Source: Desulfuromonadales bacterium | GTDB taxonomy: Bacteria; Desulfobacterota; JAENJC01 | Length of the DNA: 64,000 bases | Assembly (NCBI GenBank): GCA_919902985.1 | Contig: CAKKSC010000004.1 | Span: forward strand, 32,230-96,229 | Direction of reading: 5' to 3' | In this document: positions 18,101 through 48,201 of the stretch, piece by piece | How positions within the stretch are numbered: position 1 is the stretch's first letter | How the letters are laid out: every line of letters starts with the position of its first letter | The notes under the pieces: model-generated | What the model was told of the DNA's origin: nothing | What the model saw: only the letters and a program-made list of their open reading frames with translations | Database searches by the model: none | Position numbers and translations under genes: made by a program

Positions 18101-19260
18101 TTTACCAGACGTAATTCAGGAGATGTCTCTCCCTTTTCCACGAGAATGATAAACGGGGTTCTGATGGTCTGGGCATCTTCACTCATAGAGATTTCGCCGG
18201 AAACACCTCGAAATCCTTTTATTTCAGTAAGCGCAGTCCTGACCTTTGAAGGTTCTGTACTCCCGGCTTTCTTTATGGCCTCTGCAATTAGCATAAAGGA
18301 GTCATAACTCGCGGCAACCACAGGTGAAGGGTCCTTCCCCTTAGCATTCCTGTAAGACTCAATAAACTTCACGGTTACGGGGTCGTCAGAGAGGGTAGTG
18401 AAGCTCGTGTAGAGGACAGAGCCAATGGTGGCCTCCCCGCCTGCCTTCAAAAACTCGGCAGCATTCAGGTTCTCACTGCCCACGAATGGCGCTTTTATAC
18501 CCTGTCTTCGCAACTCCTTCAATACTTCTATCGCCCCCTTACTGTTTCCGGTAAATACGACGGCATCAATATTTGCACCTGATTCCTTTTTTAACTTGGC
18601 AATCGCCTCTTTAGTACTAAGATCAAAATGGACATAGGCCTGGGAAACCACCTCTCCCTTGTGTTTCTGTATCGCCCTCATGTAAAGGCTTACCGCATTC
18701 ATGGTAGATTCCTCATCCCGCATGGATGTTATAATTGCATACCTCTTGTATTTGAGCTTTTCAATACAGTATTTTATTGTTTCATCTGTAGCAATCTCTT
18801 CTGGAAGGGCGTTTCTAAATATATAAGGCCCGCTCTTTTCTATATGCCGCCTGCTTCCAGCAGACATAAAAATAGTCCCTGACTCGTTCGCCATCGAAAC
18901 CGGCGCAAAAGATGACAACCCGTCAGGGGAGGCAATAATCGCCACAACCTTGTCATCAATGAGCTTGCCTGCCGCCTGCATCGTCTCACGCATGACACCT
19001 TTGTTATCTACAAATGAGGTCTCAACTTTTTTACCCTGTATCCCCCCCGCCTTGTTGAATTCCCTTGCAGCCATCGCCACACCTTCAAATACATATTTGC
19101 CGAATTCAGCTGAACCTTCGCCAGTTTTCGGCCCGAGAATGCCAATCTTGAGCTTTCTGGAAGGCTCCGCTGCCGTTTCCGCTGCTGCCTTCTCTATATT
19201 TGAGGTAAAGACAATCAGCAGGAAACATGCAATTTGAATTATTAGTGACACCTTTCTCAC
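18097..19260 (-). CDS. LivK/LivJ-type periplasmic substrate-binding protein
   Basis: Signal peptide; 'KIGILGPKTG', 'FNKAGGIQGK', 'YIFRN', 'SYDS', 'GVSGEI'. Confidence 0.85.
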   Translation of the reverse strand: MRKVSLIIQIACFLLIVFTSNIEKAAAETAAEPSRKLKIGILGPKTGEGSAEFGKYVFEGVAMAAREFNKAGGIQGKKVETSFVDNKGVMRETMQAAGKLIDDKVVAIIASPDGLSSFAPVSMANESGTIFMSAGSRRHIEKSGPYIFRNALPEEIATDETIKYCIEKLKYKRYAIITSMRDEESTMNAVSLYMRAIQKHKGEVVSQAYVHFDLSTKEAIAKLKKESGANIDAVVFTGNSKGAIEVLKELRRQGIKAPFVGSENLNAAEFLKAGGEATIGSVLYTSFTTLSDDPVTVKFIESYRNAKGKDPSPVVAASYDSFMLIAEAIKKAGSTEPSKVRTALTEIKGFRGVSGEISMSEDAQTIRTPFIILVEKGETSPELRLVK

Positions 19261-20210
19261 TTCTCTTTTACCTCTAAATCAGTCGCTTCATCAGGAACAC
19301 CATCCAGGAACTCCTCTTCAAGGAGGAAAACATTCCTGTCTCCTCCCCTTTTTGCAAAAAAACCCCTGAGCTTCTTGTCCTTTTCACCGATTAACAGTGT
19401 CTCGAGGAGGTTCTTATTGTCAATGAATTTTATCTTCAGTCTTGGGTTATCGAGGCCATATGTACTAAGGCTTTGCGGGTTCTCATCTATGAACGCCTTG
19501 ACCTTCGACTTTTTTATGCCGTACAGGGTATCAAGTATCTTGGTCAGATCACTTTTACCTTTCAGGACTCCTTCCACATCCCATATATTCTCCTGCGGAT
19601 GGAGTATGGTTATGGCCTGTTTGCCGTTCCAGAGTATATCAACCTCTTTAACCATCTTAGGGTCCGTCGCTACTACAGTCTTGTCCCTGAGGTCGTAAGG
19701 CATCTTGTCAATTTCCGACCTCACATCAGCATGGACACGCAATATCCTCTTGTCCCCGCTTAATGTGGCAAATGCAACGTTCTGTGTAGGCCCTCTGTCA
19801 CCCAATGACAAGGAGGTCGACATCCCTAATGAGGTCTTCAGGGAAATGGTTATATATGGCGGCTCCAAACCCATTTCTTTCAATTTATCTACAGGAGTTT
19901 CTGTAAACAACACACCGTCAATCTTTGCCTTTACTGTGTTATTCAGCATATCGCTGACGGCAACCTGGTCGGCATAAGCCATAACCGGCTTTTCAATCAC
20001 CCAGCCTGCGGTCCCCTTCTTTGCCGAAATTACGGAATCACTCTTAGATATCTCAATACTTATCACATCTGCAGGTTCAAAGGCAAATATCCGGCGCTGT
20101 TCTTCCTCTGCAATCTCTTTATCAGTCACCTTCTCATCAAAGAAGTAGAAAATGCCGCTGAGTACTGAAAGGATTATGAGCCAGAATATGGTCTTCTTGA
20201 AAAATCTCAC
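19257..20210 (-). CDS. DUF4340-family membrane-anchored periplasmic protein
   Basis: N-terminal TM; two repeats with 'W..EKP....AD' and 'YGLD.P'; follows GldG-like gene. Confidence 0.75.
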   Translation of the reverse strand: MRFFKKTIFWLIILSVLSGIFYFFDEKVTDKEIAEEEQRRIFAFEPADVISIEISKSDSVISAKKGTAGWVIEKPVMAYADQVAVSDMLNNTVKAKIDGVLFTETPVDKLKEMGLEPPYITISLKTSLGMSTSLSLGDRGPTQNVAFATLSGDKRILRVHADVRSEIDKMPYDLRDKTVVATDPKMVKEVDILWNGKQAITILHPQENIWDVEGVLKGKSDLTKILDTLYGIKKSKVKAFIDENPQSLSTYGLDNPRLKIKFIDNKNLLETLLIGEKDKKLRGFFAKRGGDRNVFLLEEEFLDGVPDEATDLEVKEK

Positions 20211-21763
20211 TATTTGATCCTGCGGCGTGTAAGAACAGCAACGCCAATAACAAGGATTATGGAAGGAACAACGACTACAGGAATCCAGAAGATAAATCTC
20301 CCCTGAGAGGCCGTCAAAATGAGTGGGGTCAGGTTGGAATCCTTCTTTCTCACAGAGATAAGCTCTGCCTCCTCTGTAAGCCAGTTTACCATATTAAGAA
20401 AAAAGTCCTTGTTGCCTGCAAGATTAACATGGGTAGTATTTACGAACGAGGAATTCCCAACAACAACAAACTTTGCATAGACCTTCTTTCCAGAAGCATC
20501 ATCTCCGCCTTCAACCTTTTTGCTGACATCGCTTATAGCTACTGCGGCGATGGAGAGAGGGCCTTTCTTCTCGACCCTTTCATCATACTCGGCCTTTCCT
20601 TCCTCAAGCGCCTTCCTGTCCGTTTCCCCCCAACTTGCCTCTGACGTTAAAGCAAGGGGGAAAAAACCTTTTGATGGGTCCCTGTCCACCTCTACAGACC
20701 TTGCCAGGGGAAAGAAGGTCATTACATTAAATTCTTCTGTGATAGGGTGCTGCTTCTCGTACTGGGTAACAACCGGGACAAGATAGTTTGCACCATAGAC
20801 CTGCGATAATTTATCTATTATTATATCATTCCCAAGACGAAAACCATAACCCTGAAGGAATTCTGCCAATTTAGGCGTTGTCCCCGGGTCGAGCATAAAG
20901 AGGAGACTCCCCCCCCTGTTTATGTAACTGGTAAGTCTCTCAAGCTCGTCCGGCAGCGGGTCCTTCTTTGGACCGCTCACAATAAGAAGCGCACAGTCGT
21001 CCGGCACTTCAACTGCGCCCGGCAGGAGCAATTCTTTGACCTGATAATTCTCCTTCTCAATAGACTCTTTTATCGCCTTGTACCCTAAGTTCTGAAAGTC
21101 AGCTATATCATTTTCTCCATGACCTTTAAGAAAATATACACTTTTTATCTCATCCCTTGTTACCTTTACTATTGCATTGATCAGCTTATCTTCCGATTCA
21201 AATCCAACCTCCTGCTGATTCGCTCCACTCCTGACAAGGGTTGTCCTATATGCGGTAACTCCGTATTTTGCTGCAGCCCCAGGCTGTTTATCAGGGTCTA
21301 TGAACTGGTATGAAAACTTCGAGGATAACTGGGAAAACTCGGAAAGAAGGTCTTCCATCGCCTGTCTCGTCCTTTCATCGCTCCTGTAAAAGGCAACAGC
21401 CATGACATCTTTTTTCAGCGTCTTTACTATCTTCTTACTCTGAATAGAAAGGGTATAACGACCTGTCTTGGTCAGGTCCCACCTTACTTTGTATCTCGTA
21501 GTAAAGAATGAAACTACACCAATCATAGTAATAAAGATTATGATCATCACCGCTGTATTTGCACCATATTTAGCAGACCTGAGTGTTAATAATGTCCTGA
21601 GTTCAGGGAAGCTCACATAGAAATAGAAGAGGAGGATGAGCAACCCAATCCATAAGAGGGCAATTATATAGCTCTCCATTGCACCGCTTATAGCATATGT
21701 AATCCCTCCAGCGGCTACGGTTAAAAGACCTATAATCCCTATTATTGGCAGAAACCTTTTCAT
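20210..21763 (-). CDS. GldG-family ABC auxiliary protein
   Basis: 'RWDLTKTGRYTLS', 'IDPDKQP', 'YFLKGHGE', 'GNKDFFLNMVNWL', C-terminal TM. Confidence 0.88.
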   Translation of the reverse strand: MKRFLPIIGIIGLLTVAAGGITYAISGAMESYIIALLWIGLLILLFYFYVSFPELRTLLTLRSAKYGANTAVMIIIFITMIGVVSFFTTRYKVRWDLTKTGRYTLSIQSKKIVKTLKKDVMAVAFYRSDERTRQAMEDLLSEFSQLSSKFSYQFIDPDKQPGAAAKYGVTAYRTTLVRSGANQQEVGFESEDKLINAIVKVTRDEIKSVYFLKGHGENDIADFQNLGYKAIKESIEKENYQVKELLLPGAVEVPDDCALLIVSGPKKDPLPDELERLTSYINRGGSLLFMLDPGTTPKLAEFLQGYGFRLGNDIIIDKLSQVYGANYLVPVVTQYEKQHPITEEFNVMTFFPLARSVEVDRDPSKGFFPLALTSEASWGETDRKALEEGKAEYDERVEKKGPLSIAAVAISDVSKKVEGGDDASGKKVYAKFVVVGNSSFVNTTHVNLAGNKDFFLNMVNWLTEEAELISVRKKDSNLTPLILTASQGRFIFWIPVVVVPSIILVIGVAVLTRRRIK

Positions 21764-21800
21764 TTAACAGTTTATCTCCTTAGAGTAAATCATGTAACCC

Positions 21801-22580
21801 CTATCCCCTCCACTTCTTTGACTCCAGCACCCTGAGCGTCAGAAAGTTAAAAAGTATAATAAAGAGAAAATAGTATATTATGTCCGTCGTATCGACTATG
21901 CCCTTTGCAAACCCTTCCAGATGCCCGATCAACGATATGTGCACCATGATATTTCCAATCGTGGGACCCATTAAGGAGACTGAAGTCCCCATCATGAAGA
22001 ACAGGATCAGCACCCCAAAAGACAAGGTGGCCGCGATTATCTGGTTCTCTGTCAGGGAGGATGTAAATATTCCAAGAGAGATAAAGGCCGCACCTGTAAG
22101 GATGAGCCCTATATACCCGGTAATAGTCGGTCCTATTTCAGGCTCACCTAAGAAAATCAACAATGCCGGAAATGTAGCTGTAAGCAGGAGCATTAAAAGG
22201 AATACAACAAAGCAGGCAATAAATTTCCCGATTATGACCTCCATATCAGTCACCGGATAAGTTAACAGAAGCTCAATTGTTCCACTCTTCTTCTCCTCTG
22301 AGAAGAGGCGCATAGTTAGAAGCGGCATCATAAGGAGCATGATCATGCTTATATTGCCAAAAAGAGGTCTGACTACCGTCTCCGTGATATTTAAAAGGTT
22401 CTGCTGTTTAGCTATAGCAGGGTTTGTAGAGGCCTGGAAGCTAAGGGTTGAAAAAGAAGCAAGCAGATTATAAAAATAATATCCGGTGACAACAAGAAAG
22501 ATCGTTATTACGACGTAGGCGACAGGCGACGAAAAATAAGAATTGAGTTCCTTCTTAGCTATAAGATAAAAGTTTCTCAT
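21801..22580 (-). CDS. GldF-like ABC-2 permease
   Basis: 'KELNSYFSSPVAY', 'PLLTMRLFSEEKKSGTIELLLT.P', 'SSLTENQIIAA'. Confidence 0.9.
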   Translation of the reverse strand: MRNFYLIAKKELNSYFSSPVAYVVITIFLVVTGYYFYNLLASFSTLSFQASTNPAIAKQQNLLNITETVVRPLFGNISMIMLLMMPLLTMRLFSEEKKSGTIELLLTYPVTDMEVIIGKFIACFVVFLLMLLLTATFPALLIFLGEPEIGPTITGYIGLILTGAAFISLGIFTSSLTENQIIAATLSFGVLILFFMMGTSVSLMGPTIGNIMVHISLIGHLEGFAKGIVDTTDIIYYFLFIILFNFLTLRVLESKKWRG

Positions 22581-22587
22581 TTATCAG

Positions 22588-23520
22588 CTACTCCTTTGTC
22601 ACCAGTTTGATAAAAATATCCTCAAGACTCATCTCAACCGGTCTCAGTTCCAGCAGACCCCAGCCGCTTCTTACAATGCCGGCGGCAATGTCCCTTCTGA
22701 CATCAATACCCTTTTCGGTATCTAATATGAACTCGGATACGCCATTGCTGCTCTCTTTTTTGTTAACCCTGTTTATTCCCCGAATCTTCTGAAGTCCGGT
22801 TATAACCTCCTGCGCCGGTCCGTCCACTTTCACAATAAGGCGGCTCGCCCCCTGTATGTTAGATGTAAGGTTCTGAGGCGTATCAACTGCCACCACCTTC
22901 CCCTTATTTATAATGACCACCCTGTTGCAGGTCATGCTTACTTCAGGGAGGATATGGGTGCTCAGGATTATCGTCCTTTTACCGGCCAAACTTTTTATCA
23001 GTTTTCTAATCTCTATAATCTGTTTCGGGTCAAGCCCAACTGTGGGCTCATCCAGTATCAGCACCTCGGGTTCATTTACAAGCGCCTGGGCCAGTCCGAC
23101 CCTCTGGCGATACCCCTTTGAAAGCTCATTTATCATCTTATGGGACATGTCGGAAAGACCACACTCTTCGAGGGCATTCCCAACCCGGTTCTTCAAGTCC
23201 TGCCGCCTCACACCCTTGATCCCTGCGACAAATGTGAGGTAGTCAACTACCTTCATATCCCTGTAAAGCGGCACATTTTCCGGCAGATAACCTATCCTCT
23301 TTTTTACCTCATGAGGCTCTTCAAATACGTCATAACCAGCAATACTGGCCTTGCCGCTTGTAGCAGGAAAGAAACAGGTAAGGATTCTCATTGTGGTTGT
23401 CTTGCCCGCGCCGTTAGGCCCGAGAAACCCCAATATCTCTCCCTTTTCTACAGAGAAAGTGATCTCATTAAGGGCTTGATAGCTACCGTAACTCTTTGTC
23501 AGCTTCTCTACTTGAATCAT
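22588..23520 (-). CDS. GldA-like ABC transporter ATP-binding protein
   Basis: 'GPNGAGKTT', 'LSKGYRQRVGLAQA', 'LDEPTVGLDP', 'STHILPEV'; ATG at 23520 preferred over the ORF-track start 23556. Confidence 0.92.
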   Translation of the reverse strand: MIQVEKLTKSYGSYQALNEITFSVEKGEILGFLGPNGAGKTTTMRILTCFFPATSGKASIAGYDVFEEPHEVKKRIGYLPENVPLYRDMKVVDYLTFVAGIKGVRRQDLKNRVGNALEECGLSDMSHKMINELSKGYRQRVGLAQALVNEPEVLILDEPTVGLDPKQIIEIRKLIKSLAGKRTIILSTHILPEVSMTCNRVVIINKGKVVAVDTPQNLTSNIQGASRLIVKVDGPAQEVITGLQKIRGINRVNKKESSNGVSEFILDTEKGIDVRRDIAAGIVRSGWGLLELRPVEMSLEDIFIKLVTKE

Positions 23521-23539
23521 TATATAACCTGCCTGATTT

Positions 23540-24067
23540 CTATTTTGAACCTGCACCTTCAGGATTAAATGTGCCTTCCTTATGCGTGCCTGGGATCGAT
23601 TTCTTCATCAATGCCTGCTCAATCTTTCGTTGAGAGAACGGCGTATCCAATAACTTTATAAGTGCCTCATCACCTTTTAGGAGTTTCTTCAGGTCTTCTT
23701 TCCTCCAGCCCTCCTCCCAGTTCCCGATAAGACCGCTCCATACCTGAGAGATGGCCACAGCCTCGGCATCGGTGATGGTTGGGAGATATTCTTTTCCCGG
23801 TTTTGCCCTTTCAATATCAATAAGGCTCTTCATGTTATGAACAACAACAATAAACGGTGGGCCGCACCTGAAGCAATATTTTGTTATCTTATCTATATTA
23901 TGGCATGAGGAACACTTTGCATACGCAAGAGAAACCGCTTCATCCGGGGTATATTCAAGATAACCTCGAGTCTTGGATGCTGAAAGTATCTTGTCTTTAA
24001 ATGCCAATGAAATAACTACGATAAGAAGGAAAACTATAGATATTAAAATCAGATATTTAGATTTCAC
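23540..24067 (-). CDS. Membrane-anchored monoheme c-type cytochrome with extra CxxC
   Basis: N-terminal TM, 'CSSCH', 'CFRC', downstream 'HNM'. Confidence 0.65.
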   Translation of the reverse strand: MKSKYLILISIVFLLIVVISLAFKDKILSASKTRGYLEYTPDEAVSLAYAKCSSCHNIDKITKYCFRCGPPFIVVVHNMKSLIDIERAKPGKEYLPTITDAEAVAISQVWSGLIGNWEEGWRKEDLKKLLKGDEALIKLLDTPFSQRKIEQALMKKSIPGTHKEGTFNPEGAGSK

Positions 24068-24090
24068 AGTATAACCAGAAACTCCTTAGT

Positions 24091-24133
24091 AAAAAATACA
24101 GGGCACGACCAGTATTTTCCGGCCATGCCCTGT
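24091..24133 (-). terminator. Intrinsic terminator after the cytochrome c genes
   Basis: Minus strand acagggcatggcc-loop-ggtcgtgccctgt followed by atttttt. Confidence 0.7.
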
Positions 24134-24183
24134 CAATGTCAATGCTGCAAAAATGACATTATTAATGATACCTGTGCATATCC

Positions 24184-25128
24184 TTATTTTTTGAACATCT
24201 TTGCTTCATCTGCAGCACTCTTTCTCAAGCCGCCTTCGACATAACCTGCACCCTTCAGACCGCCGCCGCGTCCTGCGAGCGATGCCTCAGCAAGTTCATT
24301 AGCTTCAGCAAATGCCGGGTCGGTTGCAGCATTCAATGCATTTACCTTGTTGGCTGCGGATTTAGGATCGAATGAAGACTTCGGGTTTAAATAATCGGCA
24401 ACGCTTGTAATTTTCTTAGTGTCGGCGTTTGCCCTTATCCAGGCGATAACATTCCAGATATCCTGGTCATGAAGAAGATTTCCCCACTGTGGCATAACGT
24501 CCGCAAGGTCAACTGCTCCACCACCTCCCTTTATGACCGTGAACAGCTCAACATTGGTCTTCTTGTTCATGTACGCAGCACCTGCAGTGAGGTCCCTTGG
24601 ATACGGATCGAGGTATGTGGCGTTGGGTCCATCACCCTTAAGAAGCCAGCCATGACATCCAACGCAGTAAACATAATACCACTGCTTCCCTTCGTTCGGG
24701 TTTGCGCCTGGAACCAGGCTTTCCTTGAACGATGGAGACCAGTTGTTTGTCCACTGATTGTATGCGGCTTCACCGCTTAGCGGCTTTGCAGCCCTGTCCC
24801 ACATCTCCGTCTTGCCAGTGCCCTTTGAGTAGCCACTCTCGGTCGCGAAGGTCTTCGTGTTCGCCTTGGATGTCCTCTTTCCTACGCCTGTCAAATAGTC
24901 AAAGGGGGCTATGCCGTACGTGCTTCCGCCTATACCCTTGGCCATATTCATGGCTTCCTTTTCGTAATTAGCTGCTGCATCACTCAGCTCAGCCTCTGTA
25001 CGAGTCGGACACTCCACCTTCACTCCCTCAGCCGTACACCTCTTTTCTGCAGCATTCCCCGCCGCTGCAAATACAAAGATGCTTAAAACTGTACACACTG
25101 TAATTCCTCTTACTTTGCCTTTCATCAT
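24184..25128 (-). CDS. Periplasmic monoheme cytochrome c with long N- and C-terminal extensions
   Basis: Signal peptide, 'CVGCHG..LKGDGP', 'PRDLT', 'MPQWG'. Confidence 0.85.
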   Translation of the reverse strand: MMKGKVRGITVCTVLSIFVFAAAGNAAEKRCTAEGVKVECPTRTEAELSDAAANYEKEAMNMAKGIGGSTYGIAPFDYLTGVGKRTSKANTKTFATESGYSKGTGKTEMWDRAAKPLSGEAAYNQWTNNWSPSFKESLVPGANPNEGKQWYYVYCVGCHGWLLKGDGPNATYLDPYPRDLTAGAAYMNKKTNVELFTVIKGGGGAVDLADVMPQWGNLLHDQDIWNVIAWIRANADTKKITSVADYLNPKSSFDPKSAANKVNALNAATDPAFAEANELAEASLAGRGGGLKGAGYVEGGLRKSAADEAKMFKK

Positions 25129-25168
25129 CTTTCACCTCCTTTTAGGTTTAGATTAATTACTACAACAA

Positions 25169-25534
25169 TTATTTAGCCGTGCAGTTACACAGCTTCCGTA
25201 AGTAGGACACCATATCCTTTATTTCGTCAGCAGTCAAGGTCTTCCCAAATGGAGGCATAAGAGGAGACTTGCTGTTTGCCGGCCCACCGTCCGTAATAGC
25301 GTTCGTGATATCTGCATCGGAAAGCTTGCTCATATCCTCAGCGCTTGCATGGTTTCTTGGGGTTACGGCCATGTCCTTTGTGACATTGATCCCGTCGCCC
25401 TTGCCTTGAGGGCCATGACACTGAGTACAGTAAAATTTATAATTCTCTTCAGCAGTAGCCGCGTAAGAAACCCCGGTTCCCAAAGTCATCATTACAGCAA
25501 AAATCATTAAGAGATAAAGTGCTTTTTTGTTCAT
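25169..25534 (-). CDS. Periplasmic monoheme cytochrome c
   Basis: Signal peptide, 'CTQCHG..GKGDG', 'MPPFG'. Confidence 0.92.
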   Translation of the reverse strand: MNKKALYLLMIFAVMMTLGTGVSYAATAEENYKFYCTQCHGPQGKGDGINVTKDMAVTPRNHASAEDMSKLSDADITNAITDGGPANSKSPLMPPFGKTLTADEIKDMVSYLRKLCNCTAK

Positions 25535-25601
25535 CTATAACTCCTTATAAATTAGGTTTGAGGCGGTTAATAAAACCGCATGGGACTAACTCCCTTTCAA
25601 T

Positions 25602-26285
25602 TTAAAAACTTGCAATGAGGGCAGCTACGTTCTTCATGTCAACGTCACTCAAATAACCTTCATAAATAGGCATCCTCTTAACAGGCTTAAACACCTTAGG
25701 CTTCTTCAGATATGCATATACCCAGTCGCCCTGAAGCCTCTCACCGGCCTTAACCAGGCTCGGCGCAACCATTCCGCCAACAACCTTGCCGGTCTTCTCT
25801 ATCTGATGACATGCCTGACATGCCTGCTTTTTCTCAAATGCCTGTTTCCCCTGAATGTTCTTATTTGCCTGAATCACTCCTGCCTCTACATCCTTTGATG
25901 TAAGGGTCATAAGATATTCTGCAACCTCGTCAGCCTCTGCCTTTGACAGTTTTGGGTGGTTGCCTGCGTTCTTCTTCTCCAATGAATTATACTCGATAGG
26001 CCTTATGACTATAGGGTCCTGAAGCCACTTTTCCAGCCATTCCTTCTTAAATTTACTGCCGGCATACCACAGCTCCGGCCCTTTCTTCTTAAGCTGGTCC
26101 GCAAAGGTCTTCTCAGTAGCAGGCCCCTGAGTTATATGACAATCACCGCTGCCGCACTTCTTTGCCTCAAACACACCCTTACCCTTGGCCGCGTCAGCGC
26201 GGCTGCTCTCCGCACCAAATCCAATCATGGCAGATGCGAGGAGCGATACTACAACAACACGACTGCAAGTTACTCTTTTAACCAT
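25602..26285 (-). CDS. Periplasmic diheme cytochrome c (CX4CH + CX2CH)
   Basis: Signal peptide; 'CGSGDCH' then 'GPELWYAG'; 'CQACH' then 'APSL' and 'MP'. Confidence 0.82.
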   Translation of the reverse strand: MVKRVTCSRVVVVSLLASAMIGFGAESSRADAAKGKGVFEAKKCGSGDCHITQGPATEKTFADQLKKKGPELWYAGSKFKKEWLEKWLQDPIVIRPIEYNSLEKKNAGNHPKLSKAEADEVAEYLMTLTSKDVEAGVIQANKNIQGKQAFEKKQACQACHQIEKTGKVVGGMVAPSLVKAGERLQGDWVYAYLKKPKVFKPVKRMPIYEGYLSDVDMKNVAALIASF

Positions 26286-26341: not shown

Positions 26342-27394
26342 TCAAGGGGATAATTGCTTAAGCATATTTTTTTCTGTTTCATCTATACTTATAGACATCT
26401 TTGGCGATTCCACTTTTACAATGCCGTTGCCATCAATCACACCCAGTTCATTGGTGCCTATGACAGTAAACCACACCTTATTGGAAGCTGCTACCGTTAT
26501 ATCTACCGGCGCCCGGTCCCCGCCGACCAGATCGAACTCAATAAATCCCTTATCCTTAGGTGAATAACGGCCAACACGCTTTTTATACTTGTCGCAATAC
26601 CATATATTCCCGGCACTGTCGACGGCAAGCCCTTCAGGGACGCCCTTTCCCGGCAGCTCAAACTCATCGAATCTTTCCGATACCGGATCAAACTTCACAA
26701 GCTTCCTGTCTTTCCTCGCACTGAACCAGAGTTGCCCCTGTCCATCTATTGTAAGCTCTGTAGGCACACAGAACGGCTTTGGTATGATGTATTCCTTTAT
26801 CTTCCCTGTCTCAGGAATCAGTTTGCTAATTTTGTTCCCCTGAGTTTCAATAAACCATACTGCGCCCTTATTGGTTGCCACTATCCCCACTGGCTGGCTC
26901 TTTGGCGTTGGGATTGGGTGCTCCTTGAAACTCTTGGTGACCGGATCAAACTCACCGATCCTGTTCCCGGCAAACTCCGTAAACCAGACCCTGCCGTCTT
27001 TATCCACGGAAAGCCTCATTGACTGGCTCTTTGGAGACGGGATATCATACTCTTCAAATCTCTTGGTTTCCAGATCAAAAGTTCCTATCTGGTTCCCGTC
27101 CTCTTCAACAAACCAGATCCTGCCTTTATGATCAACTGTTATATCTGTGGCCGAGCTGCGCGAGGTTGGTATCTCGTATTTAGTGAACTGCTCGTCTTTC
27201 TGGTTGAATATAAATATTAAGTTATTTCTAAAATCAACGAACCAGATGCGCCCGCTTACATCAGAGCTGATTGCAACAGGAACACCATTGGAAGAGGGTA
27301 TCGAATAATATTTTACCTTTGACTCCTCTGCAAAAGCCTGAGCGGCTACAGCTGTGAATAATCCTATACCTATGATCACATTTCTACATCTCAT
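26342..27394 (-). CDS. Exported Vgb (virginiamycin B lyase)-like beta-propeller
   Basis: Signal peptide; ~7 repeats of 'IP...S.P..I.VD..GRVWF.E..GN.IG.FDP'. Confidence 0.85.
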   Translation of the reverse strand: MRCRNVIIGIGLFTAVAAQAFAEESKVKYYSIPSSNGVPVAISSDVSGRIWFVDFRNNLIFIFNQKDEQFTKYEIPTSRSSATDITVDHKGRIWFVEEDGNQIGTFDLETKRFEEYDIPSPKSQSMRLSVDKDGRVWFTEFAGNRIGEFDPVTKSFKEHPIPTPKSQPVGIVATNKGAVWFIETQGNKISKLIPETGKIKEYIIPKPFCVPTELTIDGQGQLWFSARKDRKLVKFDPVSERFDEFELPGKGVPEGLAVDSAGNIWYCDKYKKRVGRYSPKDKGFIEFDLVGGDRAPVDITVAASNKVWFTVIGTNELGVIDGNGIVKVESPKMSISIDETEKNMLKQLSP

Positions 27395-28563
27395 TTATTT
27401 CCCTTTCCTCTTAATATAAATCGAATAACGATTGCGAGAAGAGATATGGATACGAGAGCAATAAAAACCATCATGAGCATCTGCGATATCCTGTCCGATT
27501 TATCATCTTTCGCGCTTTCCTCCTGTTTTTTCCCAACCTTAAGAGTATCTGATATATCCAGTTTTCCTATCCTGTTAGCGTCCCTGTCTGATTCAGTAAA
27601 CCATGCGATGCCTTCCCTGTCAACCGCAATACTGGTAGGCAGAGACTTTGACGTCGGGATCTCATATTCACTCACAACAGCGCTTACGGGATCGAAGACC
27701 CCTATCTTGTTACCCCTGTTCTCCACAAACCAGACCAACCCTTTCTGGTCTATAGCTATGCTCGAGATCACAGGAGAAAGGGTCGGCACGATCACCTCGT
27801 TAAAGGCCTTCAATGAGGGATTGAACATCCCTATCCTTCCTGTAAGCATCTCAGCAAACCAGACCATACCATTGCCGTCAATTGCGATAGATGAAGGATT
27901 TGCAAAAGGAGTTGGTATAATATGCTCAATGATCTTGCCCTTGACAGGGTCAAGGCTTGCGAGCTTATTACCATCCATCTCCGTAAACCAGACAATTCCC
28001 ATCTTATCTATGGCAACTGCCGATGGATGACTGGATGGAGTTGGTATCGTATGCTCCTTTATAACTCCCGTCTCAGGTGAAAGGCTCGCAACCTTATTGC
28101 CTTCACGCTCTATAAACCATACAGTCCCGTTCTCCGCTATCGCCAGATCGTAAGGGTTGCTATCTACCGTTTTGATTGGAAAGCTCTTGTATTTATCTGT
28201 TGATGGATTAAAATTAATGATGCTGTTCCCGCTTGAATTAGCTATCCAGATACTACCATCCTTCGCTGCAACTATTCCTGCTGGAACTCCAGGGTAAGGA
28301 ATTACATGCTCCTTGAATGCATTATCTGATGGTGTAAACCTCAGTATCTTGTTTTCATTCTGATAGGCAAGCCATATATGTCCGCTTCCATCATTTACAA
28401 TAGCAATGCGGGCAGGAGAAACGGCAGGTATTGGAATAACAAACTCTTTAATGACGGAATCGGCGGCAGTCGAGCCCCCTGCCATTATTAAACAGAAGAA
28501 TATAGAGGCAAATAAAATTTGTGCCATTATAGGGAAAATACGGAGTTTAACTGTTTTTGCCAT
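27391..28563 (-). CDS. Exported, C-terminally anchored Vgb-like beta-propeller
   Basis: Signal peptide (start 28563 preferred over 28623), ~7 Vgb-type repeats, C-terminal TM. Confidence 0.85.
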   Translation of the reverse strand: MAKTVKLRIFPIMAQILFASIFFCLIMAGGSTAADSVIKEFVIPIPAVSPARIAIVNDGSGHIWLAYQNENKILRFTPSDNAFKEHVIPYPGVPAGIVAAKDGSIWIANSSGNSIINFNPSTDKYKSFPIKTVDSNPYDLAIAENGTVWFIEREGNKVASLSPETGVIKEHTIPTPSSHPSAVAIDKMGIVWFTEMDGNKLASLDPVKGKIIEHIIPTPFANPSSIAIDGNGMVWFAEMLTGRIGMFNPSLKAFNEVIVPTLSPVISSIAIDQKGLVWFVENRGNKIGVFDPVSAVVSEYEIPTSKSLPTSIAVDREGIAWFTESDRDANRIGKLDISDTLKVGKKQEESAKDDKSDRISQMLMMVFIALVSISLLAIVIRFILRGKGNK

Positions 28564-28999
28564 CAGGAGTGCTTTCACCGGTAAAATCGATCTTCCAGCT
28601 CCTTGATTTCTCATCAAGGTCAAGGTTTATATCCGTAGTAACGCAAACTTCTCCGCCGAATGCAGATGTACACTTATATTCTATCGTAACAACGGCCCGG
28701 TCTTTAACAACCTTAGAGCCGACAATCTTCACTACCATATTTTTTGGATAGTTCAACACTATTCCCTTGAACTTATCTTCAGTTAGAGTGAACCGCTTGG
28801 AGCTGACCTGCCTGTATGCCTCACTGATAGAGGAACTTCCACCTTCGGCAATGTAACTGTAGAACTTCTTTACGACCTCCTCAGGAGACTCTGAAGTCTT
28901 GATCTTAACAGAACCACTGTATTGATAAACATAAACCCCGATAATGATGATTAAAAAAAGAAATAATGTCCCCACTGCCAATAACTTTTTTTTACTCAT
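28547..28999 (-). CDS. Membrane-anchored periplasmic hypothetical protein (NTF2/DUF4878-like)
   Basis: N-terminal TM; 'SPEEVVKKFY', 'A.V.IEY', 'WKI'. Confidence 0.6.
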   Translation of the reverse strand: MSKKKLLAVGTLFLFLIIIIGVYVYQYSGSVKIKTSESPEEVVKKFYSYIAEGGSSSISEAYRQVSSKRFTLTEDKFKGIVLNYPKNMVVKIVGSKVVKDRAVVTIEYKCTSAFGGEVCVTTDINLDLDEKSRSWKIDFTGESTPDGKNS

Positions 29000-29089: not shown

Positions 29090-30832
29090 TTATATCTGAT
29101 TAAGATTATCTACCCTCTCTGCCCTTTCAAATTCGTCTTCATCGGCAGCAACGTTCTTCTTCTGGGCCTCATCATAATCGCCTACAGCAAGGTTGGAAGG
29201 ACCTTTCTTCGGATCGTCTACGAAGAACGCGCCCCTCATCTCGAGGTGCAGAGGACCGCAGAAGTGCTGGCAGTAAACCTCATATTCACCAGCTGTATCA
29301 GCGACAAACTCACCAACAGCACTCACACCCCTCGGGATAGTAATCATGGTCTTGAGACCATATGGCCCGTTTATGTTGTAACCCATAATAACATCGGGGT
29401 TTTTGGTTATGCCTGCTGCCTTATCAATATTGGTTACAATAAGCCTGACCTTATCGCCCTTATTGACCCTGACCTGCCTTGGGACATAACCGTAGCTGAA
29501 TGCCTTTACCCTAACTTCCTTAACACCGTCCTTAGTTGTGGTCACGCCCGGCCTGCCTGTATCCATCGGCACATAGTAAGACTTGCCGCCTCTATGGTGC
29601 CCCGGCTCAATCCTGCCGGACTTACCAGCGCCTGCAAAGAGGGTTGATACACCCTTCTCGGCCTCACCCATGTTCCAGTTCTTGATTGCGCTTGCAAAAA
29701 GGATCTTTGCGTTGTGCGGCTCACCGTCAACAGGGATAATCTTGAGGGTCTTACCATATGTCTTGCTCTTCTCCTCAATGTCGATCATCTCATGGTTGAC
29801 CGGCCAGGCAATGCCTGTCGGGCTGAAAAGCCCGGTAGAGAACTTGTTCAAGGCAAATACATACTTATTGTCAGGGCTAACACTTATATGCCCGATCCTG
29901 TAGTGAACCGGGAACTCGTCAACAACCTCCAGCTTGTCCAGGTCTGTCTTCACGATGCTGTCTGCCACAAAGCAGCTTGTATACGCATACTTGCCGTTTG
30001 TGTCAAACACGTTGTGCAACGGACCGGCTCCGGCAGGGATAACCTTCTTGACAGCAAGCTTTTCAACATCTATGATGCTGAGCGTTGCGGAGAGCTTGTC
30101 CGCGACCTGGATATACCTTCCGAGTGGGTCGGCGTCCGTACCGTGCGGGTTCTTACCAACTGGGATCTCCTTTATGAGCTTGAACGGATTCAGCTCGAAG
30201 ACACCGACTGTTGAGTGGTAGTAGTTGTTGGAGAAAACATACTGCTTCCTGTCTGCCTTACCGGCCTTCTTGTTTATGTCAAGATAGTCCGGGGCGCTTG
30301 GCGCAGGACCCCAGTCTATGACCTGGGTCTTGCCGGTTGCTATATCGGTCTTGGCCATCTTTCCTGTGAGCTCGCCTGTTGAATAAAGGGTCTTTCCGTC
30401 AGGTCCGAGTGTGATGTGGTGAATGCCGAACGGGAAAGGCAAAGAAATGAGCCTGTCCAGCATACCCATCTGGAGGTTGATTATCCCGATGGTGTTTGCC
30501 CCCTTATCGTTCACATAGAGGTATTTGCCATCAGGCCCTTTGCTGTACGGACCATACCAGCTCTTCATACCTTCGTTTGTAGGTGCGCTGAATGTTGGCT
30601 CATGCAGGTCAACACCAACAGGTATATGCCTGTATGTCCTCAAGCTTGGCACACCCATCACAGCCACAGCTCCGTCAACCCCACCTGCGTTATACATGAT
30701 CATAGGGTCCTGAAGCGGGGCGTCATTTGGAGACGATTCCGTCTCGTGCCAGTCCCTCTCACCCGCCACCGCAGTGCCGCCAACCATAAGCAGCAGTGCA
30801 AGCACTATAAATAATGAATTGCGATATCTCAT
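29090..30832 (-). CDS. nosZ: Divergent nitrous-oxide-reductase-like multicopper protein (beta-propeller + CuA cupredoxin), Sec-type signal
   Basis: NosZ motifs 'GVPSLR', 'DGKYLYVNDK', 'KNPHG', 'ADKLS', 'GPLH', 'VHY.IGH', 'LNKFS', 'EPH', CuA 'CQHFCGPLHLEM'; deviations DLHE, GIHH, DVIMG; no twin-arginine motif. Confidence 0.8.
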   Translation of the reverse strand: MRYRNSLFIVLALLLMVGGTAVAGERDWHETESSPNDAPLQDPMIMYNAGGVDGAVAVMGVPSLRTYRHIPVGVDLHEPTFSAPTNEGMKSWYGPYSKGPDGKYLYVNDKGANTIGIINLQMGMLDRLISLPFPFGIHHITLGPDGKTLYSTGELTGKMAKTDIATGKTQVIDWGPAPSAPDYLDINKKAGKADRKQYVFSNNYYHSTVGVFELNPFKLIKEIPVGKNPHGTDADPLGRYIQVADKLSATLSIIDVEKLAVKKVIPAGAGPLHNVFDTNGKYAYTSCFVADSIVKTDLDKLEVVDEFPVHYRIGHISVSPDNKYVFALNKFSTGLFSPTGIAWPVNHEMIDIEEKSKTYGKTLKIIPVDGEPHNAKILFASAIKNWNMGEAEKGVSTLFAGAGKSGRIEPGHHRGGKSYYVPMDTGRPGVTTTKDGVKEVRVKAFSYGYVPRQVRVNKGDKVRLIVTNIDKAAGITKNPDVIMGYNINGPYGLKTMITIPRGVSAVGEFVADTAGEYEVYCQHFCGPLHLEMRGAFFVDDPKKGPSNLAVGDYDEAQKKNVAADEDEFERAERVDNLNQI

Positions 30833-31074
30833 TTTTCCCTCCTTGTCTTGGATTTTGGGTTAATGTTCCAAAAACTTTAGCCTCTTGCCTGATGCCATAA
30901 AAATCTAAAACCATACCTTCAAAATACTAAAATACCACCTCCTCCCTCTTTATCTTTGTTGGAACCGGAACTACCTGCTAATAACGCTCAGAACGATTTG
31001 AAATAGTTGCCAGGCACAAGCTTTTATTGTACCTGACAACGCACCGAAATAAGGTGTTCAACTTTGGTAGTTGT

Positions 31075-31103
31075 TATATAGACCAACGCTTTAAAATTGT
31101 CAA
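31075..31103 (-). promoter_or_regulatory. Sigma70-like promoter for the nosZ-like operon
   Basis: Minus strand TTGACA-N17-TATATA, ~240 bp upstream of ATG. Confidence 0.5.
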
Positions 31104-31271
31104 GATTTTTTTTAACAGTTAAAGTAAGCTTATAACAAAATGGCCACTGGCCACAAATAGAATATTCCTTTTTTACGATAAGCATTGCATCTTATATATT
31201 ATTTCTTATATAATAATTCAAATGATGTGTGGACTGCAACTTCTTAAGTAGTTGTCATCCGGAAACCGAAA

Positions 31272-31317
31272 ATCCCCCCTCACCCCCCTTTGGAAAAGGG
31301 GGACTTAGGGGGAGTTT
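31272..31317. repeat. GC-rich REP-like palindrome
   Basis: atccccctcacccccctttggaaaagggggacttagggggagttt; related elements near 44826-44870 and 45146-45180. Confidence 0.6.
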
Positions 31318-31455
31318 CGGGTAGAGACTAAGTAACAATATCGTAACATGACATAGATTGCAACCTGGAAAAATTAACGTGATAAAATTGCCTGATCCAC
31401 TAAGCACCGAAGGACAAAGTCCCAGCCAGACAACCAAACAGATCATGGAGGGCGA

Positions 31456-32841
31456 GTGATAGACAAACCTAAAATCCTTATAGTTGATGATGAACCTCTT
31501 ATGAGGATAGCAATTATTGATGCCCTTCTTGCAGAGGGTTATGATGTAAAAGGAGTGGGGTCGGGTAAAGAAGGTAAGAATCTGATTCTCGATAATGGCT
31601 ACGATGTATTAATTACAGACCTCAGACTGCCTGAAATAGACGGCCTTGAGATACTAAAAACCGTCATGGAGCATTCTCCAAAAACTAAGGTCATTATGAT
31701 AACAGCTTACGGCTCGGTCAACACTGCGGTTGAGGCTATTAAACAGGGTGCTTACGATTATCTGACCAAACCATTTTCCATGGAAGAACTTTTGATTATA
31801 GTCAGGCGTTTGCTGGAGTTTAGAGAGCTGGAATTCGAGAACCGGCAACTGAAAGAAAAGATAGATGAATTGTGTCATTTTGAGGGAATAATCGGAAGCA
31901 ACAGCAAGATGAGAGATGTCATGGACAAGATAAAGGTGGTGGCAGAAACTGGGGCCACAATCCTGATTTCAGGTGAAAGCGGAACAGGAAAGGAACTGAT
32001 CGCCAACGCCATCCACCACAGCAGCAGAAAAGACAGGCCCTTCATCAAGGTAAGCTGTGCCGCCCTGCCGGAAAGCCTTTTGGAAACCGAACTTTTTGGG
32101 CATGAAAAGGGGGCGTTTACCGGGGCGGTCAAACAAAAAAAGGGCAGATTCGAACTGGCCAATGGCGGGACACTGTTCCTTGATGAAATTGGCGAGATCT
32201 CACCTACCGTTCAGGTAAAGCTTCTCAGGGTTCTCCAGGAAAGGCAGTTTGAAAGGGTGGGTGGTACAGAGACCATAGATATAGATGTAAGGATTATATG
32301 CGCAACCAACAAGGATCTGAAAAAAGAGGTACAGAGAAACGCCTTTAGAGAGGACCTTTATTACAGATTAAACGTCGTGCATATCCATGTCCCCTCTTTG
32401 AGGGAAAGGAAAGAGGATATTATTCTTCTGGCAAACAGTTTTGTAAAGAAATTCGCTTCACAGAACAACAGAGAGATAGAAGGTATCTCGCCCGAGACCA
32501 GGGAGTTATTACTTAACTACCCCTTCCCTGGAAATGTCAGGGAGTTGGCGCACGCCGTCGAAAGGGCTGTGATACTTGGGAACACTAAATATATCCAGCC
32601 AAAAGACCTGCCTGAAGATCTCCTGACCTATTACAATGATGCTCTTGGAACGTCAGCGAAATCCCGATATTCAGAACCATTATCAGAGGCAATAGAGCGT
32701 TTTGAAAAGGAATATATAATCAAGACCTTAGAGGCAACGGAAGGGAATAAAACCCTCGCTGCTGAAAAACTTGGTTTATCCAGAAAGACCCTCTGGATGA
32801 AATGCAAAAACCATGGGTTGGTCCAGGACACTGTAATATAA
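31456..32841 (+). CDS. Sigma54-dependent response regulator (NtrC/AtoC family)
   Basis: Receiver 'LIVDDE..TDLRLP..TAYG..KP', 'GESGTGKE', '[13 protein letters not shown]', 'LFLDEIGE', 'FPGNVREL', Fis-type HTH. Confidence 0.96.
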
Positions 32842-32862
32842 GGATTAAGGTTGAGGTAGATC

Positions 32863-41992: not shown

Positions 41993-42784
41993 TTAAACCC
42001 TGTAGATAGTCTTCAATACACGCCTTTGAATAAAATATGAGATGATCCCTATATATGCCAATATCAATGGCATTATTATGTAAATATTCGACCATGTCGA
42101 GTTGTTGATTAATGTGTTGTTGCCGCCCCCGCTAATAACGATTCCAAACCTGTTCCTCCATGCCCTGTTGTCCTTCAAGGTATTGTTGCTTGAATCCCAA
42201 AGTAGGATCCCGTTCCAGGTGTTATGGTTAACATTATTGTCCGTAAGGTTATTATAGCTGGAGGAGCTCAGGAATATCCCATTGTCTTTATTTGAACTTG
42301 CGCTGTTTTTTTCCAGGCTGTTCCTATTGGATGAATCAAGATATATCCCATAGCTTTCGTTTAAATCGGCTGAGTTGCCTGCTATCGTATTGTTGCTGGA
42401 ACCATAGAAAATAATTCCATTACCGTTCTTTACACTCTTGTTATCAGTAATCGTCCCATTATTGGAATTATAAAGGTATATGCCGGAAAGAAGAGAACCT
42501 GTGGTCGTAAAGCCCGATATCGTTACATTATTAACGTTGCTTATCTTAAACACAGGCTCGCTGGGAACAGCTGCCAAGATAGTTGTGAAATCCGGGCCTC
42601 TGCGCGACCTTATCGAAACCGGCCTCGTGATCGAAACATTTTCTTTATAAATTCCTTCACTCACAATTATAGTATCTTCCTTGGAGGCGTTAATTACCGC
42701 CTCCTGGATAGTCTTATAGTTTTCAGGAACAATGATTGTAGAATAAATAAGTAATAATGCTGTTAATGACAGCATGTGTCGCAC
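41993..42784 (-). CDS. NosD/CASH-type right-handed beta-helix protein with C-terminal TM
   Basis: 'VPENYKTIQEAV', repeated 'GI.L..SSNNT...N....N' units; signal-like N-terminus. Confidence 0.8.
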   Translation of the reverse strand: MRHMLSLTALLLIYSTIIVPENYKTIQEAVINASKEDTIIVSEGIYKENVSITRPVSIRSRRGPDFTTILAAVPSEPVFKISNVNNVTISGFTTTGSLLSGIYLYNSNNGTITDNKSVKNGNGIIFYGSSNNTIAGNSADLNESYGIYLDSSNRNSLEKNSASSNKDNGIFLSSSSYNNLTDNNVNHNTWNGILLWDSSNNTLKDNRAWRNRFGIVISGGGNNTLINNSTWSNIYIIMPLILAYIGIISYFIQRRVLKTIYRV

Positions 42785-48198: not shown

Positions 48199-48201
48199 TC
48201 T

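Follow-up and report, generated by a model that had tools for sequence, protein, structure and literature searches.

Is a nitrous oxide reductase (NosZ)-like protein whose first CuZ motif reads DLHE, and whose next motif has gained a histidine, evidence of a new kind of copper site? To our knowledge, no biological sink for N2O other than N2O reductase is known, and the question is raised here by an open reading frame (ORF) of 580 amino acids in the window, by which we mean the whole 64,000-nucleotide stretch of DNA that was analyzed. The original prediction took the site to be a re-wired tetracopper site. We find that the shifted histidine pattern is the already published signature of clade III, not a new kind of copper site; it runs through the whole family, which has its own NCBIfam model (NF052460) and a published motif filter. 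The clade III lactonase-type enzymes (L-NosZ) were reportedly described by He et al. in Nature in 2025 (646:152). The ORF very probably encodes a periplasmic member of this clade, with DxHE and GxHH as a fixed clade signature. Table 1 lists the features discussed below.

Table 1. Features of the L-nosZ ORF and its surroundings (positions are those of the window)
Feature	Coordinates	Strand	Evidence
Predicted L-nosZ: clade III lactonase-type nitrous oxide reductase, 580 aa	29090..30832	-	NF052460.1, Pfam, AF2 model
D75-L76-H77-E78, on canonical DxHH; H77 is the first His, E78 in place of the second	30599..30610	-	MAFFT, hhalign
G136-I137-H138-H139; H138 is the canonical blade-2 His, H139 the extra His	30416..30427	-	MAFFT, hhalign
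NPHG (228-231); H230 predicted CuZ ligand	30140..30151	-	Alignment
GPLH (270-273); H273 predicted CuZ ligand	30014..30025	-	Alignment
RIGH (312-315); H315 predicted CuZ ligand	29888..29899	-	Alignment
LNKFS (328-332); K330 corresponds to P. denitrificans Lys397, the Lys that delivers protons	29837..29851	-	Alignment and review
GEPH (370-373); E371 partner of the Lys, H373 single His of the fourth copper	29714..29725	-	Alignment and review
DVIMGY; M483 in the column of the first CuA His (DxxHGF) of canonical NosZ and the other clade III lineages	29378..29395	-	Alignment
CQHFCGPLHLEM; CuA motif CX2FCX3HXEM (C521, C525, H529, M532)	29237..29272	-	Alignment
Two beta-propeller proteins of the Vgb_lyase/NHL type (350, 410 aa); one membrane-anchored protein of 150 aa, unassigned to any known family	26342..28999	-	Pfam
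Four one-CxxCH proteins: 227, 121, and 314 aa, and 175 aa, membrane anchored	23540..26285	-	Pfam Cytochrom_C, Cytochrome_CBB3; CxxCH counts
ABC-2 type transporter: GldA-like ATPase, GldF-like permease, GldG-like protein, DUF4340	19257..23556	-	Pfam, NCBIfam
Sigma-54 activator gene, divergent from the L-nosZ operon	31456-32841
NosD-family beta-helix gene, 263 aa, 11 kb from L-nosZ	41993-42784

Family membership and fold

NF052460.1, the NCBIfam equivalog HMM named "clade III lactonase-type nitrous-oxide reductase (L-NosZ)," matches the ORF along model positions 1-480 of 480 with 700.9 bits (E 6.9e-211). The curated cutoff is 700 bits, and the margin is thus only 0.9 bit; in a whole-genome search with the same model the L-NosZ protein scored 701.3 bits, and its relatives P0044 and P0126 reach 825 and 914 bits. 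The equivalog models for the canonical enzymes fall well below their cutoff of 625 on this ORF (TIGR04246, 188.2 bits; TIGR04244, 150.9 bits). The expectation that standard nosZ detection would miss the protein therefore holds for these models but not for the published clade III filter, which already accepts GXHH. [quoted passage not shown] All of the filter motifs are found in the ORF (residues 521-532, 136-139, 229-231, 270-273, and 371-373), and its length is also within range.

Pfam recognizes Lactonase, YNCE, nos_propeller, and Cupredoxin_1 in the protein. As read from the sequence, a hydrophobic N-terminal signal that has no twin arginine precedes a seven-bladed beta-propeller (residues ~40-400), a cupredoxin domain (~417-540), and a 40-residue C-terminal tail. 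The best Foldseek matches of the AF2 model (pLDDT 80.2, pTM 0.83) are NosZ structures (probability 1.00, E 7e-30), and in VIA the propeller superposes on NosZ with a best Z of 40.9 (rmsd 2.3 Å, 329 residues, 30% identity); the generic YVTN propeller 1l0q scores nearly as high (Z 39.6). For the cupredoxin domain, the matches (Cupredoxin_1, and CoxB and CuA chains) come from sequence alone. A sequence search of a copy of the PDB found no chain closer than canonical NosZ and no clade III chain (best E 1.3e-30). Several papers report L-NosZ as an active N2O reductase, and we infer that the 580-aa protein reduces N2O as well.

Placement of the CuZ motifs

Consistent with the prediction, a 16-sequence MAFFT alignment and an hhalign comparison of 50 relatives with 10 canonical NosZ proteins (probability 100, E 2e-61, 447 columns) agree in placing DLHE at the site of DxHH. 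In the hhalign pairing, GVDLHEP lies on wgDtHHp and FGIHHI on xxxHGx; E78 falls on the second histidine and H139 on Gly, and the position of H139 is Gly, Ser, or Cys in canonical enzymes. The glutamate for the second histidine of the first motif and the histidine gained in GIHH are both present where the prediction had put them, within 30416-30610, a range whose ends are the codons of H139 and D75. The D75-E78 and G136-H139 codons were checked by hand, and residue positions were also computed. The predicted total of seven histidines (H77, H138, H139, H230, H273, H315, and H373) was borne out, as was the retention of the catalytic pair, with K330 and E371 matching the Lys397/Glu435 pair given for Paracoccus denitrificans NosZ in a review.

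One alignment dissents. The single-sequence phmmer alignment to Pseudomonas stutzeri NosZ sets DCHHPH opposite SWYGPYSK of the query, not DLHE. Because that stretch sits within a six-residue insert (91-96) absent from most relatives, and because MAFFT and hhalign concur otherwise, we read the phmmer pairing as a local misalignment.

Among 288 aligned NosZ-superfamily proteins, HE goes with HH in 163 and HH with H[G/S/C] in 120, and none is mixed; a histidine at the second DxHH position occurs in 120/120 canonical but 0/163 clade-III-type sequences. Ten residues (H77, E78, H138, H139, H230, H273, H315, K330, E371, and H373) are identical in 163/163 clade-III-type sequences, and D75 is invariant too. 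Judged from these aligned sequences, the motif pattern is far beyond chance. Four further histidines, H69, H206, H310, and H412, were considered as alternative CuZ ligands and rejected. In other clade III lineages the columns of H69 and H206 hold Leu/Val/Thr/Met and Arg/Lys, and H310 and H412 vary there too; none of them therefore belongs to the clade-wide ligand set.

One might take the 163/120/0 table as covariation in support of a compensatory swap, but it is not independent evidence of one. In an unrooted tree of 29 representatives of our own sampling, which gives no direction of change, the contrast between HE/HH and HH/HG collapses to a single branch and thus reflects one historical event, not repeated covariation. 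In this tree P0126 and P0283 fall into one group with the query, and all 22 canonical rows lie across one long branch from it (support 100*, length 1.11).

Ligands of the CuZ cluster

We expect that the seven-bladed propeller holds a CuZ-type copper-sulfur cluster, with H77 from blade 1, H138 and H139 from blade 2, and H230, H273, H315, and H373 as the candidate ligands, and that proton delivery at the substrate edge would fall to K330 and E371, as it does to their counterparts in canonical NosZ. In the AF2 model, the proposed ligand histidines lie at or just before the starts of strands 76-81, 139-142, 229-234, 271-276, 315-318, and 374-379, that is, on every fourth strand; strand 181-186 of the remaining blade carries none of them. 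The C-terminal cupredoxin domain would hold CuA via C521, C525, H529, and M532 and would be supplied with electrons by the monoheme c-type cytochromes encoded alongside. The enzyme probably acts as a head-to-tail dimer, and the reaction would be N2O + 2e- + 2H+ -> N2 + H2O.

Which residue takes over from the missing histidine is less clear-cut. With little better than even confidence, we lean toward H139, not E78, as the residue that binds the copper held canonically by His130 (P. denitrificans His80). However, E78 is as invariant as H139 (163/163), which makes a glutamate ligand a live alternative. The enzyme would then be the same, but CuZ would be held by six histidines and the E78 carboxylate, with H139 in the second sphere, where it might relay protons or pair with E78. 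In both alignments E78 occupies the canonical ligand position, and the strand layout of the model suggests that H139, as part of the neighboring blade, would need a longer reach to contact that copper. Against this, the total of seven invariant histidines is exactly kept, the HE+HG combination expected if glutamate alone sufficed occurs in 0/288 sequences, and we know of no precedent for a carboxylate ligand to a CuZ copper. We therefore consider coordination by E78 possible but rather unlikely and retain H139 as the favored ligand. A 2026 review leaves open which form CuZ takes in clade III.

The CuA site and a Met483 sub-clade

The Cys-Cys-His-Met set of CuA is invariant in the aligned sequences. 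Of the 163 clade-III-type sequences, 145 have Met in the column of the first CuA histidine; the remaining 18 have His, as do 120/120 canonical ones. In the query's sub-clade this methionine is invariable and is accompanied by H69, H206, and a conserved C-terminal tail, all three invariant in this sub-clade alone; the tail sets the query apart from the P0126-type lineage of clade III, from which it is absent.

The first CuA histidine (His583 of P. stutzeri) is a gate for electron and proton transfer. With methionine in its place, the electron-entry site of the sub-clade differs from that of every characterized NosZ. One can tentatively envision that the Met483 sub-clade has both of its copper sites rewired, CuZ by the exchanges His to Glu and Gly to His and CuA by that of its first His to Met, although we hold this to be doubtful. 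A Cys2-His-Met2 CuA, or a CuA with a histidine borrowed from elsewhere in the dimer, is known to us from no characterized enzyme. Either would, if true, be a CuA variant that could shift the redox potential or the pH behavior of N2O reduction, and the organisms concerned would be a large group of Thermodesulfobacteriota, Nitrospinota, Gallionella, and Zetaproteobacteria.

Gene neighborhood

The neighborhood was compared across 43 related loci, each 15 kb or longer, and c-type cytochrome genes accompany L-nosZ in 41 of them. The four monoheme cytochromes of the window (227, 121, 314, and 175 aa) are present in 26, 41, 41, and 22 of these loci, respectively; they are likely the electron donors. 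Between them and L-nosZ sit the Vgb-type 350-aa and 410-aa propellers and the 150-aa protein, found in 27, 27, and 20 loci. Components of the ABC-2 transporter recur less often (17, 13, 9, and 7 loci), and the GldA/GldF/GldG-like assignments by Pfam and NCBIfam rule it out as NosDFY. Of the 14 genes that follow L-nosZ downstream, Pfam and NCBIfam identified none as NosD, NosF/Y-type, or NosL; nosDFYL are thus absent from the operon, and no nosR lies near L-nosZ. A NosL-like gene is present on another contig of the same genome, which is 95% complete and has one L-nosZ and no canonical nosZ. The host has a small genome and is nitrate reducing, with no recognizable nitrite reductase.

Given the divergent sigma-54 activator gene, a sigma-54 promoter for the L-nosZ operon was sought in 30833-31455. 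No match to TGGCAC-N5-TTGC with up to 2 mismatches was found there, and the candidate was dropped; over the whole window there were 50 such matches, with 50.1 expected by chance.

Some of these observations would also fit a copper enzyme that resembles NosZ but differs from it in cluster or substrate and does not work as an N2O reductase. Both copper sites are unlike those of characterized enzymes, including M483 for the CuA histidine in the sub-clade; the nosDFYL assembly genes are absent from the operon; the NF052460 score is borderline; and the form of the clade III CuZ is called undetermined in the 2026 review. We nonetheless find such a change of function improbable, since there is no variation in the CuZ ligand columns, in the Lys/Glu pair, or in the Cys-Cys-His-Met set of CuA, NCBIfam names the family as an N2O reductase equivalog, activity is reported in several papers, and the genome carries a NosL-like gene on another contig. 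That the protein is a decayed, noncatalytic paralogue is hardly credible, for although the wider family includes such cases (P0122, with GVNN, its CuA cysteines lost, and a fusion to ~600 extra residues; P0128, with DLHG/GPNS/EPF; and P0138, with all CuZ histidines lost), the query retains every ligand column and is the sole NosZ-type gene in its 95%-complete genome.

Comparison with known systems

A probably active clade III L-NosZ remains our reading of the ORF. Sequence differences of the DxHE/GxHH sort are precisely why clade III stayed overlooked until 2025, and the window contributes one more member of the clade and no new principle. The point of interest is the way in which such an enzyme would hold and assemble a Cu4S cluster with the DxHH pair broken, nosDFYL missing from the operon, and, in the sub-clade, the CuA histidine replaced by methionine.

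The best structural matches of the query are the clade I NosZ proteins of P. stutzeri (3SBP and 6RKZ) and P. denitrificans (1FWX), with VIA Z scores of 38.5-40.9 and rmsd values of 2.2-2.5 Å over ~330 propeller residues, at a sequence identity of 21-31%. In contrast to them, the query lacks a Tat signal, nosR and nosDFYL are missing from its surroundings, and two of its copper-ligand positions are altered (E78/H139 and M483). With 580 aa, it also lacks the long inserts of canonical NosZ (~610-700 aa). It resembles clade II, the Sec-dependent NosZ of TIGR04246, in having a seven-bladed propeller, a cupredoxin domain, and a signal that is free of a twin arginine, and it shares with clade II 5/7 CuZ histidine columns, the Lys/Glu pair, and the CuA motif CX2FCX3HXEM. 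It departs from clade II in having DxHE instead of DxHH and xHH instead of xH[G/S/C].

The cytochromes of the query locus are c-type, unlike the clade III neighborhood in the 2026 review, which has b-type cytochromes and a MacB-type transporter. Otherwise, the surroundings are those of clade III L-NosZ, with cytochromes and a non-Nos ABC transporter and without nosDFYL. The L-NosZ relatives of the query come from Thermodesulfobacteriota, Nitrospinota, Nitrospirota, and iron-oxidizing Pseudomonadota, in line with the clade III hosts of the literature.

RESULTS

Family assignment and fold

The 580-residue product of L-nosZ contains the Pfam domains Lactonase, YNCE-like propeller, nos_propeller and Cupredoxin_1. 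The NCBIfam equivalog "clade III lactonase-type nitrous-oxide reductase (L-NosZ)" (NF052460.1) aligns with it along the full model and gives 700.9 bits, where the curated threshold is 700; the relatives P0044 and P0126 score higher (825 and 914 bits). With the canonical models TIGR04246 and TIGR04244 the L-nosZ product scored 188 and 151 bits, the cut-off being 625 in both cases. The closest database proteins among the matches listed are named "beta-propeller fold lactonase family protein" or (JGI) "nitrous oxide reductase." The hydrophobic N terminus, as read from the protein sequence, lacks a twin arginine. A 132-codon ORF at 30416-30814 (+), antisense to L-nosZ, was taken to be spurious.

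An AlphaFold2 model, built with an alignment of 50 from 121 sequences, had a mean pLDDT of 80.2 and a pTM of 0.83. Its top Foldseek matches were NosZ of P. stutzeri, Shewanella, Paracoccus, Marinobacter and Achromobacter (E ~1e-29, probability 1.00), at a whole-chain TM of ~0.5 and an rmsd of ~16 Å, values that we put down to a different placement of the two domains. The propeller alone superposed on NosZ with Z 40.9 and an rmsd of 2.3 Å over 329 residues (30% identity), followed by a generic YVTN propeller (Z 39.6) and lactonases (~34). Canonical NosZ was the nearest chain in a PDB sequence search (best E 1.3e-30), with nothing closer found, and the PDB copy searched therefore held no clade III chain.

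Alignment of the CuZ motifs

The original prediction held that DLHE stands in place of DxHH and that the next motif, GIHH, gains a histidine. Both statements were borne out by the codons and by two alignments. MAFFT, with 16 diverse proteins, set DLHEP under D[TSL]HHP and FGIHHI under xxxH[GS]x; hhalign, comparing 50 clade III with 10 canonical NosZ sequences (probability 100, E 2e-61, 447 aligned columns), placed E78 at the second His, H138 at the invariant blade-2 His and H139 at the Gly. With the two methods concurring, we read DLHE as the counterpart of canonical DxHH. A pairwise phmmer alignment with P. stutzeri NosZ was discordant, setting DCHHPH against SWYGPYSK; it was misled by the insert SWYGPY (residues 91-96; 30545-30562, -), six residues missing in most relatives. 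Model confidence dips at block 91-100 (pLDDT 65).

In the model, every fourth strand starts at or directly after one of the positions H77, H138/H139, H230, H273, H315 and H373. These strands (76-81, 139-142, 229-234, 271-276, 315-318 and 374-379) fall one per blade; in the one other blade, the equivalent strand (181-186) has no His. This predicted pattern fits the multiple alignments.

Features of the L-nosZ region and of related genes (window positions unless residues or another contig are named; residue n corresponds to bases 30832-3n+1 to 30832-3(n-1))
Feature	Position	Strand	Remark
L-nosZ ORF, 580 codons	29090-30832	-	contains the CuZ motif site
H69	30623-30634	-	invariant in Met483 sub-clade only
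D75-L-H77-E78	30599-30610	-	codons verified by hand and script
G136-I-H138-H139	30416-30427	-	codons verified by hand and script
H206	30209-30223	-	invariant in Met483 sub-clade only
NPHG	residues 228-231	-	script motif check
GPLH	residues 270-273	-	script motif check
RIGH	residues 312-315	-	script motif check
LNKFS	residues 328-332	-	script motif check
GEPH	residues 370-373	-	script motif check
CuA-type CQHFCGPLHLEM	residues 521-532	-	script motif check
C-terminal tail SNLAVGDY...	29174-29197	-	conserved in Met483 sub-clade only
150-aa membrane-anchored protein, no family	downstream of L-nosZ	-	20/43 loci
Two Vgb_lyase/NHL-type six-bladed propeller proteins	26342-28623	-	27/43 loci
175-aa ORF, N-terminal membrane anchor, one CSSCH haem-binding motif	23540-24067	-	22/43 loci
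ABC-2 transporter, GldA/F/G type, with DUF4340 protein	downstream	-	ATPase 17/43, permease 13/43
Periplasmic binding protein	downstream of ABC-2 transporter	-	domain search
ResA-like thiol-disulfide oxidoreductase	downstream of periplasmic binding protein	-	domain search
Sigma-54-dependent response regulator and Cache/HAMP/PAS histidine kinase	31456-35499	+	only 3/43 loci
NosD-family right-handed beta-helix protein, short, 263 aa	41993-42784	-	11 kb from L-nosZ
narGHJI respiratory nitrate reductase operon	46940-53498	-	1259-aa molybdopterin subunit, Fe-S beta, delta, gamma
NosL-family protein, 137 aa	1477-1890 of locus L001 (contig C64, source genome G000)	-	64 bits

Distribution of the HE+HH pattern

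D.HE with G.HH was present throughout the first search set of 121 sequences (the query plus 120 listed relatives, 60-95% identical), and D.HH was absent. Distant relatives were taken from 1.84 billion representatives scanned in full with HMMER, as the best 150 of 7050 matches (E up to 0.001), and further ones from word-indexed searches with the relatives P0126 and P0130 as queries. Of 422 proteins gathered, 288 were aligned: 174 of 420-900 aa with phmmer coverage from query residue ≤120 to ≥500, and 114 from the last search under the same length filter; fragments, very long multi-propeller proteins and lengths outside the range were left out. H-E occurred with H-H in 163 and H-H with H-G, H-S or H-C in 120 (108, 10 and 2, respectively), with no mixed pattern among the 288, a table that is not independent evidence of compensation because the tree described below points to one event. 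The other five (P0123, P0128, P0138, P0224 and P0311) are either fragmentary or decayed.

No variation was seen among the 163 HE+HH sequences at H230, H273, H315, K330, E371 and H373, nor in the C, C, H and M of CuA. Thus, the total of seven His and the retained Lys/Glu pair, both part of the original prediction, hold clade-wide. The canonical residues are given in a review, in P. denitrificans numbering, as His79, 80, 128, 270, 325, 376 and 437, with Lys397/Glu435.

An unrooted maximum-likelihood tree was made from 29 representatives, chosen greedily at <62% identity, with three fragmentary or unrelated rows kept out. All 22 canonical rows grouped together (support 100, branch length 1.11), and every HE/HH lineage, together with two decayed lineages, lay on the opposite side of that branch. 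A single branch implies that the exchange arose once or was inherited once; since the tree is unrooted, the "migration" has no known direction.

Some relatives depart from both patterns. P0122 (1139 aa) keeps DLHE but reads GVNN, lacks the CuA cysteines and carries a fusion of ~600 more residues; P0128 reads DLHG/GPNS/EPF with CuA intact; P0138 has lost all CuZ His and kept CuA. These are decayed relatives, perhaps electron-transfer or structural paralogues.

A Met variant at CuA

M483, in DVIMGY (29378-29395, -), stands where canonical NosZ has DxxHGF with the first CuA ligand His. Of the 163 clade-III-type sequences, a sample biased to the Met sub-clade because the query is a member, 145 have Met in this column; the remaining 18 (lineages of P0126, P0283 and P0130), like 120 of 120 canonical sequences, have His. 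The Met sub-clade forms one clade on the tree (support 100). Other clade III lineages have Leu, Val, Thr or Met at the H69 position and Arg or Lys at that of H206, and stop directly after the CuA domain. A literature search, which did not cover the family's discovery paper, He et al. (Nature 2025;646:152), itself, found no mention of the Met-for-His change.

Gene neighborhood and genome

Neighbors were counted in those 43 of 80 related loci that span 15 kb or more; the MAGs concerned are labelled Deltaproteobacteria/Thermodesulfobacteriota, Nitrospinota, Nitrospirota, Gallionella, Zetaproteobacteria, Magnetococcales and others. Downstream of L-nosZ, on the same strand, follow the 150-aa protein, the two propellers (one with a C-terminal hydrophobic anchor), cytochromes, the ABC-2 transporter, the binding protein and the oxidoreductase. 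Four of the downstream genes encode one CxxCH each, and two of them accompany L-nosZ in 41 of 43 loci. The 175-aa ORF had no Pfam or NCBIfam match. The sigma-54 regulator and kinase lie upstream of and divergent from L-nosZ; the 620-bp intergenic region contains no match to the -24/-12 consensus.

The genome (2.13 Mb, 88 contigs, 95% complete) has one copy of L-nosZ; no canonical nosZ and no match to NirK were found in it, and for the cd1 type there was only a weak propeller match (33 bits). The NosD-family gene adjoins genes for a hemerythrin-domain protein and an FtsH-like AAA protease, with no ABC transporter beside it; it lends little weight to a nos function, because the Pfam NosD model also matches in 6 of 14 control genomes. 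The NosL-like gene adjoins thioredoxin-like and class-V aminotransferase (cysteine-desulfurase-like) genes.

DISCUSSION

By homology, the enzyme would be exported, its propeller would carry a Cu4S cluster and its cupredoxin domain CuA, and N2O would be reduced with electrons from c-type cytochromes. Carrying narGHJI and L-nosZ, with no NirK match and only a weak cd1-type one, the organism may be capable of reducing both nitrate and N2O and yet be an incomplete denitrifier. It is possible that the NosL-like gene and its neighbors supply copper and sulfur for cluster assembly, and one can speculate that the two Vgb_lyase/NHL-type propellers might take NosD's place in maturation.

We lean slightly toward H139 as the ligand of the copper bound by canonical His130, because exactly seven invariant His are kept and no HE+HG form occurs. 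Second comes the carboxylate of E78 as the ligand of that copper; E78 is as invariant as H139 and sits at the canonical ligand position, and we nevertheless consider this unlikely. The original interpretation of the histidine shift, in which H139 would take up the vacant copper, is a reasonable reading of the sequences. The literature search found no discussion of what takes the missing ligand's place at CuZ, a point that the supplements or figures of the discovery paper may well cover.

The idea of a re-wired site that standard filters would miss stands for the canonical TIGR models, far under whose cut-offs the protein falls, and fails for the family as a whole, for which a clade III HMM and a motif filter exist. 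In another paper, hits were validated with "clade III-specific motifs" from the discovery study. The residual value of the finding lies in the structural question at CuZ and in the CuA Met variant; the HE+HH pattern is itself already known, as a published hallmark of this family.
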